The notes beneath the pieces were generated by a model that saw only the letters and a list, made by a program, of their open reading frames with translations, made no database searches and was not told the origin of the DNA. 64,000 nt of DNA from positions 4,457 through 68,456 of the forward strand of contig MFUM01000004.1 in the NCBI GenBank assembly GCA_001786955.1, read 5' to 3'. Within the stretch, counting starts at the first letter, position 1. Every line of letters starts with the position of its first letter. Positions 59,338 to 62,391 of this stretch are shown here, in pieces. Position numbers and translations under genes: made by a program. The DNA comes from Candidatus Nomurabacteria bacterium RIFCSPHIGHO2_12_FULL_42_19 (lineage in GTDB: Bacteria > Patescibacteriota > Minisyncoccia > Phycocordibacterales > UBA9973).

Positions 59338-60564
59338 ATGATTTTCATGAAACACTGCAAGGATTGCGAGCCGGCGCAGGAGAGCCATTTCGTGGCATAT
59401 ACTTCCGTTGTTCTGAGCTGGATAGACGAGCCGTTTTTCGACCTGATGGAAAGAATTTTCAAAAATATCGCCGAGACGTTGGCGGATGAAATTACCCTGC
59501 CTTTTTTTAAATTAATGGTTTTTTTAAAGCTCGGGCATTGGAGCGACAAGCCTGACGGCAAAGATACTTGGCGCACGAAGTGCTTCTGGGAAGAAGCGGA
59601 ACGGCGCGGGATAAAGATGCGCGAATTCCATTTGGGCCCTATTAAAGACGCTTTCATCGCGGAATATAAAGGCCCGCCTTCGCTAAAGCTTCGGCGGACA
59701 AGCAAAACAATACTCTTTGACGGTCTGCCCCGCCCCGGTTTTAAAGAATCCCCGGCGCTCAAATGGATGGACAATAAAGGCATAATGAAAGTAAAATTCC
59801 TGAAAGAAGGCTTGCCAATCGCGAATGGCGGAGTGGCTTTTACTAAAAGAGGCGCATTAAAAATTTTTAATAGCATAGCAAAACCGGTTATCACTAAGCC
59901 GAATCTAGGTTCCAGGAGCCGACACACGATGATACACATAAATACCGGAGAAGGCCTGATTGCCGGCTTTAAAAAAGCGAAAAAGTTGTCTCCGCTTGTC
60001 GTGATTGAAGAAGAATTGCGCGGATATTTATTCAGAGGCACTTTAATCGGCGGGAAATTAGCCGGAGTGGTCCGGCGCGACCAACCGGAAGTCACCGGCG
60101 ATGGCATGCATACTTTGAAGGAATTAATGGAAGAAGAAAATAAAAGACCGGAACGCAACGGCCCGATTTTTCATAAAATAATCGTGGATAAAGAAATGGA
60201 AATAGAATTAAAAAGAGAAAATATAACCATGGATGATGTTCCGGAAACGGGAAAAGTCGTGACTTTTTCCCAAAAGACAAGCCGGAGCTGCGGCGGGACC
60301 ACGACTGAAGTTACGGACATTGTGCATCTCGAGAATGTGGAAATGCTGGAGCATGTTGCCAGATTTTTGGACGACCCGCTCATCGGTGTAGATTTTATAA
60401 TTGAAGATATTACCAAGTCGTGGAAAGAAGAACAGCATTGCGGAATAATTGAATGCAACAGCTTGCCTTTCATAGATTTGCACCACTATCCTCTTTTTGG
60501 GAAACCGAACAATGTCGCCGGCAAGCTTTGGGATTTGGTATTGCCGGAATCAAAAATAGATTAA
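59338..60564 (+). CDS. ATP-grasp ligase resembling the N-terminal ATP-grasp region of cyanophycin synthetase (CphA-like, no Mur-ligase domains)
   Basis: RRDQPEVTGDGMHTLKELMEEEN, SCGGTTTEVTD and IGVDFIIEDITKSW...GIIECNSLP parallel CphA ATP-grasp motifs. The region is conspicuously GC-richer than its flanks. Confidence 0.55.
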   Translation: MIFMKHCKDCEPAQESHFVAYTSVVLSWIDEPFFDLMERIFKNIAETLADEITLPFFKLMVFLKLGHWSDKPDGKDTWRTKCFWEEAERRGIKMREFHLGPIKDAFIAEYKGPPSLKLRRTSKTILFDGLPRPGFKESPALKWMDNKGIMKVKFLKEGLPIANGGVAFTKRGALKIFNSIAKPVITKPNLGSRSRHTMIHINTGEGLIAGFKKAKKLSPLVVIEEELRGYLFRGTLIGGKLAGVVRRDQPEVTGDGMHTLKELMEEENKRPERNGPIFHKIIVDKEMEIELKRENITMDDVPETGKVVTFSQKTSRSCGGTTTEVTDIVHLENVEMLEHVARFLDDPLIGVDFIIEDITKSWKEEQHCGIIECNSLPFIDLHHYPLFGKPNNVAGKLWDLVLPESKID

Positions 60565-61064
60565 ATTCGTTTTAGTGTTTCTATGGAAATCTCTGATTTA
60601 GGGTCAAAAGCGTCTGGATCCATTTTAAGATGCGATACATATTTTCTCTCAACAGCAAATTCGCCTAAGAATTTTAAAAAATCTTCTTTGGTTTCCCTCT
60701 CTCCTTTTTCCTCCAGGTGTTCAAGAGGATGCGCTTCCGGGGTAAATTCAAAATGCCCGCATATTTCTCCGTCTTTATAAACTCGTAAATGATACTGGTC
60801 TTGGAAATCCGTTAATTTCCTCCAGCTCAAAACTTGGTCCTCATCCACCCAAGCGATAAAGTGATTGCCGAAACCCCATTCATCGTGGAGATGCTGTTTA
60901 AGCCCTTCCAGAGTCTTTCCGGGCGTCAACCAGCCAATATGGTATTTTTGCCTGCCTTTCTTGTGCCAAATAAGACCGGCTTTTAAAAGAATTTTGCGAA
61001 AGGGCAGGAAAAAACTATATATAAAATCCCAAATTTTTTGCTTTAGTTTGTCTTCCGGAGTCAT
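60561..61064 (-). CDS. Hypothetical protein
   Basis: 167-aa ORF convergent with the ATP-grasp gene. No recognisable family. Confidence 0.35.
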   Translation of the reverse strand: MTPEDKLKQKIWDFIYSFFLPFRKILLKAGLIWHKKGRQKYHIGWLTPGKTLEGLKQHLHDEWGFGNHFIAWVDEDQVLSWRKLTDFQDQYHLRVYKDGEICGHFEFTPEAHPLEHLEEKGERETKEDFLKFLGEFAVERKYVSHLKMDPDAFDPKSEISIETLKRI

Positions 61065-61085
61065 AAAAACAATATAGCACGAAAA

Positions 61086-61487
61086 CTATTCGGTAGTCAC
61101 CCCGTCAAATTCCGGGCTATCGGCTTCTGCTTCGGCGCGAGTCGCCCGCATTACGCCGTCCTTGTGGTGCGCCGGGGAATAAATCGTGTAAAGTTTCAAG
61201 GCTTCGGTCTGTGAAATATTAACTACATTATGCTCCGCGCCAGCCGGCACGATGACCGCATCGCCGTCACCGACCGCGTATTCATTGCCGTCGATAAATA
61301 CCTTTCCTTCTCCTTTTTCAAAGCGGAAAAATTGGTCGTTGTCTTTGTGAATTTCAAGGCCGATTTCTTCGCCGGGCTTGAGGGCCATCAGCACAAGTTG
61401 GTTGTGCGCTCCGGTATATAAAACTTTCCGAAAATTATTATTTTCAAGAGTCAGTTTTTCTATATTATTTTTATATCCTTTTTTCAT
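61086..61487 (-). CDS. Cupin-domain protein
   Basis: G(X)5HXH-like, then GEGKVFIDG...AVIVPAGAEHNVVN two-motif cupin barrel. Confidence 0.65.
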   Translation of the reverse strand: MKKGYKNNIEKLTLENNNFRKVLYTGAHNQLVLMALKPGEEIGLEIHKDNDQFFRFEKGEGKVFIDGNEYAVGDGDAVIVPAGAEHNVVNISQTEALKLYTIYSPAHHKDGVMRATRAEAEADSPEFDGVTTE

Positions 61488-61553
61488 AAATATATTATAT
61501 CACTTTTTTAATTTTGGGCGGGACACTCGGATCGGCATGGCAGTCTGTTTATT

Positions 61554-62120
61554 TTAAAGATTTTTGCTCAACTGTTCTACAACCTTCCCTAACTCAATCC
61601 AAGATGTTTTACGCCCTCCGTTTTGTTCCAGCCAGGAGCTTTCCAAATCAATAAGTCGAACACTGTTTTTGCTTCCAAGAGATTTTTCAGGAACTACATA
61701 GAATAACCACTGTAAGGGATTTCGCTGATCACACGTTTTGTTGAAAATTCCATGCCACGCGAATATAAATAATTCGCAGAATCTTCCTTGTTCCTCAATC
61801 TGTTCATCTAGGTGATCTCGTTTAAAATAAGACGGTTTGTTTTTTATTTGTGTAGAAAAAGCGTGAATAGCTTTACTACGGGGCGTCCATAATTGTTTTG
61901 CCGCAGATTGTTTAAGCTGTATGCGAATCCGCTTTATTCCGTTGCCTTTCTGAAAATCCCACGGATGCCAACCTGCAGCCACCCACTCCCATGCAGGATC
62001 GGTGATGAAAAGTGCTTGCCATACCATAGCTTCTGCGTAACTGCCTCGCTCACGATTATCCATAATTTTTTGATTATAGAGATGGTCAATAAGTCTTTTT
62101 ATGATTTCTTTATTGGACAT
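61554..62120 (-). CDS. Hypothetical protein
   Basis: 188-aa ORF. No recognisable family. Confidence 0.35.
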   Translation of the reverse strand: MSNKEIIKRLIDHLYNQKIMDNRERGSYAEAMVWQALFITDPAWEWVAAGWHPWDFQKGNGIKRIRIQLKQSAAKQLWTPRSKAIHAFSTQIKNKPSYFKRDHLDEQIEEQGRFCELFIFAWHGIFNKTCDQRNPLQWLFYVVPEKSLGSKNSVRLIDLESSWLEQNGGRKTSWIELGKVVEQLSKNL

Positions 62121-62148
62121 GTTTGGTTTAAGATTAAGGCAGCGGAGT

Positions 62149-62391
62149 CTACCGATAATAAATTAAATGCTTTTTTAAAAACGCTCGACCGGAGCCAGAT
62201 TTTAAATATTTTTCAAAATTAAAAGCCTTGTATTTGTCTTTTGTTGCAAAGTAAAAATCTAATTCCACTGGCAAACGAGTCGAGGTAGCGGGCACGTTAC
62301 CTTTTTTGTGTCTACTCAATCTGTCTTTCAAATTGTCAGTACAACCAATATAAAAACCATCTTTACATTTTAAACTGTACACATAATACAT
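62149..62391 (-). CDS. GIY-YIG nuclease domain protein (small, stand-alone)
   Basis: YYVYSLKCKDGFYIGCTDNLKDRLSRHKKG matches the GIY-x10-YIG...R...H..G signature. Confidence 0.7.
   Translation of the reverse strand: MYYVYSLKCKDGFYIGCTDNLKDRLSRHKKGNVPATSTRLPVELDFYFATKDKYKAFNFEKYLKSGSGRAFLKKHLIYYR

Follow-up and report, generated by a model that had tools for sequence, protein, structure and literature searches.

In the 64,000-nucleotide window of Candidatus Nomurabacteria bacterium RIFCSPHIGHO2_12_FULL_42_19 analyzed here, a stretch of about 3 kb (positions 59338 to 62391) that a first-pass annotation had flagged as a GC-richer, candidate horizontally acquired islet is not an island but an ordinary, vertically inherited neighborhood with a small strain-specific insert ahead of a pair of tRNA-Ser genes. 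With a probability that we put at roughly three in four, the flagged 3 kb consist of two unlike segments lying side by side, i.e., a conserved backbone (59347 to 61064), which encodes an ATP-grasp ligase and a His-rich protein (h167), and a strain-variable insert (61065 to 62474), which encodes a cupin, a rare protein (h188), and a GIY-YIG domain protein (Table 1). To judge from its sequence, the noteworthy part is the ATP-grasp family, stand-alone enzymes resembling the G domain of the cyanophycin synthetase CphA, with a putative zinc knuckle, an apparently altered substrate pocket, and strong conservation in Paceibacteria.

Table 1. Features in and around the flagged stretch (window coordinates)
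Feature	Length	Coordinates	Strand	Basis or remark
comF, ComF-family phosphoribosyltransferase-like competence protein		58612..59292	+	NCBIfam TIGR00201, E 2e-27; start of backbone
Antisense shadow ORF	286 aa	59298..60158	-	Inside ATP-grasp gene; not a gene
Stand-alone CphA-G-domain-like ATP-grasp ligase	405 aa	59347..60564	+	NCBIfam, PDB, AF2, Foldseek; ORF open from 59338 (408 aa)
h167, conserved His-rich protein	167 aa	60561..61064	-	Convergent with ATP-grasp gene
Cupin, single-domain	133 aa	61086..61487	-	Pfam Cupin_2, E 4e-17; first gene of insert
h188, rare protein	188 aa	61554..62120	-	In variable insert; few homologues
GIY-YIG domain protein, stand-alone	80 aa	62149..62391	-	Pfam GIY-YIG, E 4e-12; in variable insert
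tRNA-Ser, anticodon ACU (A at wobble position 34)		62475..62563	-	ARAGORN; Rfam tRNA, 56 bits
Spacer between divergent tRNA genes		62564..62800		Conserved left part plus window-specific 119-bp insert
tRNA-Ser, anticodon GCU		62801..62890	+	ARAGORN; Rfam tRNA, 45 bits

A conserved backbone of ordinary composition

Related loci were collected by a scan with the ATP-grasp protein as the query, keeping one genome per species (80 loci); five further loci were added, and gene order was determined by tblastn of the window proteins against the resulting 85 loci. Almost wherever the flanks reach, order and orientation are kept: one strand carries the genes for PilB, a 141-aa protein, PilO, PilN, and PilM, the opposite strand carries the divergent comF and ATP-grasp genes, and h167 is convergent with the ATP-grasp gene. 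The backbone then continues past h167 into the tRNA-Ser(GCU)/tRNA-Ser(ACU) pair. In 72 related loci comF precedes the ATP-grasp gene, in 53 tRNA-Ser(GCU) lies downstream of the latter, and in 40 the divergent tRNA pair follows the backbone, in either order. Profile matches bore out the neighboring competence genes of the first-pass annotation, comF and type IV pilus genes lying directly upstream.

The ATP-grasp protein is 63 to 85% identical in ~75 species, has >120 relatives at 77 to 85% identity in Nomurabacteria/Paceibacterota metagenome-assembled genomes, and is 100% identical to a protein from Candidatus Nomurabacteria GW2011_GWC2_41_8. It is about as conserved as the PilB ATPase (70 to 85% identity between species). 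Together with h167 it is conserved in ~75 species; the genes for the cupin, h188, and the GIY-YIG protein are variable. The segment from 59347 to 61064 belongs to the chromosomal backbone common to Nomurabacteria/Paceibacteria.

The composition of the stretch is unremarkable. The GC content of 59338 to 62391 is 0.421 (z 0.34 among same-size windows; whole-window mean, 0.414) and that of 59300 to 61500 is 0.432 (z 0.77, 78th percentile of same-size windows), while the synonymous codon usage of all five genes falls inside 2 standard deviations of the window. The ATP-grasp gene has a GC content of 0.452 (0.505 at third codon positions), and comparable values are found in conserved core-type genes, i.e., the two longest ORFs of the window, at 16521 to 20129 (0.451) and 20136 to 23318 (0.453), pilB (0.448), and pilM (0.451). 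The apparent GC rise is thus explained by the way in which conserved genes of this genome generally look. Nothing in the region is compositionally foreign, the only compositional exception being the 243-bp GIY-YIG gene, which is AT-rich (GC 0.32, z -2.2). The claim of a GC-richer patch accordingly did not survive calculation, the z scores of 0.3 to 0.8 lying within the normal spread and codon usage being normal; the check by GC and codon usage, which the annotation had itself proposed, returned a uniform composition and so speaks against an islet. The check by synteny that it had also proposed divided the stretch: from 59347 to 61064 the same genes are syntenic across the lineage (~80 species-level genomes), which together with the uniform composition refutes an islet there, and from 61065 to 62474 they are not, so that a reduced form of the claim stands for this part, where gene content varies.

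The GC peaks of the window lie elsewhere, at a 348-aa ORF (5233 to 6279; GC 0.50), at a 113-aa ORF whose codon usage is atypical (24348 to 24689; GC 0.49; codon usage z -3.2), and from 16500 to 21500 (GC 0.46 to 0.475), around two very long ORFs (1,202 and 1,060 aa, 16521 to 23318). The long antisense ORF that had been taken as typical of a compositional shift is present in the ORF list (59298 to 60158). As a gene it was rejected, since the ORF is private to this window: across 79 homologous genes, the median number of stops in this antisense frame is 9.

The gaps at its junctions show that the backbone carries three insertion hot spots. Between comF and the ATP-grasp gene, scored in 72 loci, the gap is ≤150 bp in 38 (17 to 58 bp) and an insert of >1 kb is present in 30; between the ATP-grasp gene and h167 the corresponding counts are 50 and 19 among 73 loci; and between h167 and the first tRNA-Ser gene only 14 of the 50 scored loci have a gap of ≤150 bp, other DNA of >1 kb intervening in 33. 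The first of these junctions bears on a reading that couples the ATP-grasp enzyme to ComF and to the type IV pilus/competence machinery, such as by modifying a pilin or a DNA uptake component, and has its gene co-transcribed with comF. The two genes share the same orientation and are separated by 17 to 58 bp in 38 of 72 loci, and the linkage is kept even in relatives of 49 to 50% identity (L079, L080, and L082). Against this, 1 to 6.5 kb of unrelated genes separate them in 30 of the 72 loci, homologues of 31 to 47% identity are found in other contexts, and a promoter-like site lies directly 5′ of the ATP-grasp start, all of which makes a role in competence unlikely. The annotation's suggestion of an amino acid or peptide ligation module next to the competence genes is broadly right for the ATP-grasp gene, directly after comF in 38 of 72 loci, but does not extend to the five genes, which are not one module.

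The 408-aa ORF reported by the first-pass annotation (59338 to 60564, plus strand), with the motifs quoted for it, is present. The true start is likely 59347, giving a protein of 405 aa beginning MKHCKDC like its database homologues. A good sigma-70-like promoter match lies within 59311 to 59347 (TTTATA, a 17-nt spacer, and TG-TATAAT; 10 of 12 positions), its −10 element ending at 59339, 8 nt before this conserved start, which suggests a leaderless or near-leaderless transcript that would be independent of comF.

A strain-variable insert ahead of the tRNA genes

The segment from 61065 to 62474, 1.4 kb with three unrelated small genes, is read as a strain-variable insert; it occupies the hot spot, bounded by h167 and the two tRNA-Ser genes, at which insertions recur. 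The cupin scores 62.1 bits against the Cupin_2 cutoff of 27.2, and cupin motif 2 is readable in its translation (GDAVIVPAGAEHNVVN, which fits G-x5-P-x-G-x2-H-x3-N). It matches phrog_13536 (E 5e-26) and is ~40% identical to cupins of the Bacillus phages Gamma, Fah, and WBeta; of the 85 related loci, only L008 has this cupin at the same site. PHROGs matches were confined to this protein and, weakly, the GIY-YIG protein.

The first-pass annotation had counted both h167 and h188 as ORFans, a designation that holds for the rare h188, with 16 homologues among 5.8 billion proteins, in unrelated genomic contexts, but not for h167, which has 384 homologues at 67 to 99% identity. h188 gave no Pfam, NCBIfam, PHROG, or PADLOC match and is encoded at this site in none of the 85 related loci. 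Its conserved residues are E24, D55, Q68-x-K/R70, E109, and E116, and a profile match to the region of the influenza PA endonuclease was nonsignificant (E 0.66); the protein is possibly nuclease-like. The GIY-YIG protein scores 46.7 bits (Pfam cutoff, 22.6). Elsewhere its gene occurs at this site in one close relative, L021, where it is 78% identical and lies beside tRNA-Ser(ACU), a 63-bp upstream segment being common to both.

The three genes could conceivably form a functional unit, such as a small defense or selfish-element cassette, rather than being independent insertions. They lie close together on one strand, 66 and 28 bp apart, and two of the three may encode nucleases. PADLOC, however, gave no match, and co-occurrence was not seen elsewhere, the cupin being alone in L008, the GIY-YIG gene alone in L021, and the h188 homologues without the other two; we regard such a unit as very unlikely. 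The negative PADLOC search for defense systems covered all five genes of the stretch, and Pfam had no match for the ATP-grasp protein, h167, or h188. Among the ORFs of 59 to 63 kb, neither the ORF list nor Pfam revealed an integrase or recombinase.

Architecture and predicted chemistry of the ATP-grasp ligase

In NCBIfam, residues 146 to 405 of the protein match the cyanophycin synthetase models from position 213 or 216 to position 475 of 871 (E 5e-54, 183.7 bits), followed by GshAB (E 2e-31) and N-acetylglutaminylglutamine synthetase (E 1e-22). The first match is restricted to the glutathione-synthetase-like G domain, in keeping with the earlier observation that a Mur-ligase half is missing. 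Sequence matches in the PDB, at E values of 1e-27 to 1e-32, are to CphA2 (7TA5, the best at 1e-32) and CphA1 (7LGN, 7LGM, 7LG5, and 7WAC). An AlphaFold2 model built with 49 family members (pLDDT 93, pTM 0.91) retrieved with Foldseek the CphA1/CphA2 G domains first (TM 0.62 to 0.70 over ~340 columns) and then GshAB, LysX/ArgX, Ddl, and RimK, with a probability of 1.0 to CphA and each of these, a result that bears out the ATP-grasp fold. Residues 1 to 60 form a CxxC-x6-H motif and a helical hairpin, and the complete ATP-grasp fold with a G-omega-like insertion follows. The N-terminal C4-x2-C7-x6-H14 element, a putative zinc knuckle, is invariant in the family, and the hairpin after it has no counterpart in CphA. 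The invariant residues of the 49 members are C4, C7, H14, K144, K184, R230, D349, E369, N371, and H379.

In some homologues (P0156, P0161, P0165, P0166, and P0170; L091 46-2583), an extra N-terminal domain of ~450 aa is fused to the enzyme, with the conserved motifs ADHH..HPFF, NSSFPRG, and GGGFSQ. This domain had no match in Pfam, NCBIfam, or the PDB and is absent from the window and the fetched loci.

The active site was mapped on an alignment with SuCphA1, using the residue roles described for TeCphA1 (PMC9427784) (Table 2). In CphA1, K261 binds an ATP phosphate, R309 stabilizes the acyl-phosphate and the oxyanion, and D431 and E450 are Mg2+ ligands; the substrate Asp is bound by R323, its β-carboxylate by N394, and its α-carboxylate by R458, while G456 stabilizes the oxyanion of the tetrahedral intermediate and H267 is the P-loop His (PMC9427784).

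Table 2. CphA1 active-site residues and their equivalents in the window protein
CphA1	Window protein	State
K261	K184	Kept, family-invariant
R309	R230	Kept, family-invariant
D431	D349	Kept, family-invariant
E450	E369	Kept, family-invariant
N452	N371	Kept, family-invariant
H460	H379	Kept, family-invariant
R323	R244	Kept
H267	R190	Changed
N394	S312	Changed
G456	F375	Changed
R458	D377	Changed

The residues characteristic of the ATP-grasp superfamily are all present, i.e., the phosphate lysines (K144 being equated with CphA1 K220 by spacing only), the Mg2+-binding acidic residues, and the catalytic Arg. The protein keeps the machinery for binding ATP and two Mg2+ ions and for stabilizing an acyl-phosphate; that it acts as a carboxylate-amine ligase is the most likely reading. 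As the conserved machinery implies, a carboxylate would be activated as the acyl-phosphate and then joined to an amine. The set by which CphA1 recognizes Asp, in contrast, is incomplete, only R323 having been kept, and the nucleophile is predicted to be other than the aspartate of CphA1.

Three features that define a cyanophycin synthetase were examined, and none was found, so that on the evidence of its residues and domains the enzyme is not one. Its 183.7 bits compare with family cutoffs of 877 (NF010623) and 850 (TIGR02068), and of the three domains (N, G, and M) only G is matched, the protein ending at 405 aa and a convergent gene following. With the nucleophile pocket altered, no N domain to bind a primer, and no M domain to add Arg, it would make no cyanophycin. 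The same evidence bears on a related reading, a minimal polymerase of the cyanophycin or poly-aspartate type that adds Asp to a peptide C terminus like the CphA1 G domain, perhaps with a separate partner. The CphA1/CphA2 G domains are indeed the nearest relatives in both sequence and structure, and the equivalents of R309/R323 and the G-omega module are retained; the loss of both the N and M domains, a score of 184 bits against cutoffs of 850 to 877, the alignment of Asp-recognizing N394 and R458 with S and D and of G456 with F, and the lack of any Mur-ligase-like or cyanophycinase gene in the checked gene tables of the related loci nevertheless leave it with very little credence.

h167 and a possible two-gene system

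Many of the His and Glu residues of h167 are invariant; its structural model was mediocre and gave uninformative fold matches. The 3′ ends of its gene and the ATP-grasp gene overlap by 4 nt (60561 to 60564, at the stop codons), leaving no space for a terminator; in relatives the gap is typically between −13 and +50 bp. The pair is retained at 44% identity in L084, with glmS and a HAD hydrolase gene upstream and comF and the pil genes absent. This pairing away from comF/pil is the best hint that the ATP-grasp protein and h167 cooperate, and the two may work together.

Our best guess at the substrate of the ATP-grasp enzyme is a peptide or a cell-envelope precursor. The envelope theme is suggested by an accessory cassette and by neighbors of distant homologues, which include glmS and the HAD hydrolase (L084), a GtrA-like protein, and a putative glycosyltransferase with PGI/PMI. 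The cassette occurs between comF and the ATP-grasp gene in ~22 loci (L001 4008-8014, L003 3756-8004, and ~20 others) and comprises an optional cytidylyltransferase, VTT/DedA, two glycosyltransferases (GT2 or GT4), an α/β hydrolase, and PAP2_C, the gene for the last of which overlaps the ATP-grasp start codon. As a definer of the function of the enzyme it was rejected, being restricted to those loci. A consistent partner gene was not seen in the neighborhoods of the distant homologues.

Taken together, the ATP-grasp ligase with its CxxC-x6-H element and h167 might constitute a Paceibacteria-specific two-gene system for making, and perhaps also trimming, an amide-linked compound of a kind so far undescribed, a tentative proposal to which we assign a modest chance, well short of even odds. 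The product would be, for example, a cell-envelope precursor modified with an amino acid, or else a short nonribosomal peptide or polymer. Several points weigh against the predicted ligase activity, its envelope theme, or its partnership with h167. Arg stands in place of H267, with which CphA1 stabilizes the acyl-phosphate, so that enzymatic activity is an assumption. That the two genes adjoin could simply follow from the high synteny that such small genomes show in general; being convergent, they are not co-transcribed; and h167 was not found beside the ATP-grasp gene in 4 of the 6 most distant homologues with a long enough downstream flank (L079, L082, L083, and L085). The envelope-type neighbors are inconsistent, with one homologue following an ATP synthase operon, and the window itself is without the VTT-GT-GT-hydrolase-PAP2_C cassette. 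Lastly, the presence of the ATP-grasp gene is established for at least 80 species genomes only, and not for the whole lineage.

Patescibacteria (CPR) have tiny genomes with many strongly conserved genes without known function. The literature searched held no description of stand-alone CphA-like ATP-grasp enzymes in Patescibacteria. Defining the substrate of the ligase would extend an otherwise minimal metabolism by one biosynthetic step and would illustrate the reuse of the cyanophycin synthetase G domain as a stand-alone enzyme. If the two-gene system were real, it would amount to a new amidoligase activity derived from that domain in organisms that are otherwise minimally biosynthetic.

The tRNA-Ser pair and its spacer

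Two tRNA-Ser genes with a duplication scar, as the first-pass annotation had described, were indeed found. The scar is a 16-nt direct repeat (TAAAGGAGCCGTGTCT, at 62662 to 62677 and 62797 to 62812) that copies the 5′ end of tRNA-Ser(GCU), of which the second copy holds the first 12 nt, and it does not bracket the genes. What it flanks is a private 119-bp insert with hairpins (62678 to 62796) that had no match in the 85 related loci. The left part of the spacer, with ATTACGTAAT palindromes (62630 to 62664), matches ~19 related loci in either orientation. The GCU gene on the minus strand precedes the ACU gene on the plus strand in ~28 loci other than the window, and the ACU gene on the minus strand precedes the GCU gene on the plus strand in ~11 loci and in the window. 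Since the spacer flips with the pair, the whole tRNA unit would have been inverted repeatedly.

tRNA-Ser(ACU) is present in 40 related loci (e.g., L004 9903-9992), where its UUACUAA loop is intact and its anticodon stem has changed in a compensatory manner, and it always lies beside a normal tRNA-Ser(GCU). To our knowledge, bacteria normally avoid A34 except in tRNA-Arg(ACG). Inosine at position 34 of tRNA-Ser(ACU) would misread AGA, the codon that here encodes the invariant catalytic R230. Of the AGY codons, AGU is used less often than AGC (65 versus 132). Nothing on tRNA-Ser(ACU) was found in the literature searched.

That the whole stretch, from the ATP-grasp gene through h167, the cupin, and h188 to the GIY-YIG gene, is one horizontally acquired islet integrated beside the tRNA-Ser genes has next to no likelihood, for although tRNA genes adjoin it, the 16-nt repeat copies a tRNA 5′ end, a GIY-YIG nuclease is present, and the GC content of the ATP-grasp and cupin genes is slightly above the mean, the GC z scores (0.3 to 0.8) and codon usage are ordinary, the ATP-grasp gene and h167 are syntenic at 63 to 85% identity in ~75 species, an integrase is absent from the ORFs of 59 to 63 kb, and the repeats bracket only the 119-bp spacer insert and not the genes.

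Comparison with known systems

The region resembles tRNA-adjacent genomic islets in that gene content just ahead of the tRNA genes differs between strains, and it differs from them in having no integrase, no att-type repeats flanking genes, and no compositional deviation. Within the insert, the 80-aa protein is, like small stand-alone GIY-YIG proteins of the YhbQ/UPF0213 type (PF01541), a GIY-YIG domain only, with readable YVY, YIG, Arg, and Glu motifs and without a DNA-binding or UvrC-type extension.

As for the ATP-grasp ligase, N-acetylglutaminylglutamine synthetase (TIGR03103) matches in its ATP-grasp half (E 1e-22), whereas its GNAT domain has no counterpart in the window protein, which scores 80 bits against a cutoff of 569. 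The C-terminal ATP-grasp module of GshF/GshAB (3LN6 and 3LN7), which joins a peptide C-terminal carboxylate to an amino acid, belongs to the same ATP-grasp subclade (NCBIfam E 2e-31, Foldseek E 4e-22); identity to it is lower (18 to 20%), and the window protein is without the fused GshA domain. CphA2 (7TA5 and 8FXH) is the best match both by sequence in the PDB (E 1e-32) and by Foldseek (E 9e-27), and neither CphA2 nor the window protein has a complete, active M domain. CphA2 (629 to 642 aa) nonetheless retains the N domain of CphA and, in truncated form, the M domain, and it polymerizes β-Asp-Arg dipeptides, while the window protein has 405 aa and neither domain.

The G domain of CphA1 (7LG5, 7WAE, and 7LGN) shares with the window protein the fold with Gcore, Glid, and G-omega modules (Foldseek TM 0.70, 25 to 28% identity), the residues K261, R309, R323, D431, E450, N452, and H460, and the GDG and GG loop motifs. 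It departs from it at N394, R458, G456, and P-loop H267, replaced by S, D, F, and R, respectively, and CphA1 has in addition the N domain, its primer anchor, and the M domain, a MurE-like Arg ligase. The window protein for its part carries the CxxC-x6-H motif and the helical hairpin as elements beyond those of CphA1.

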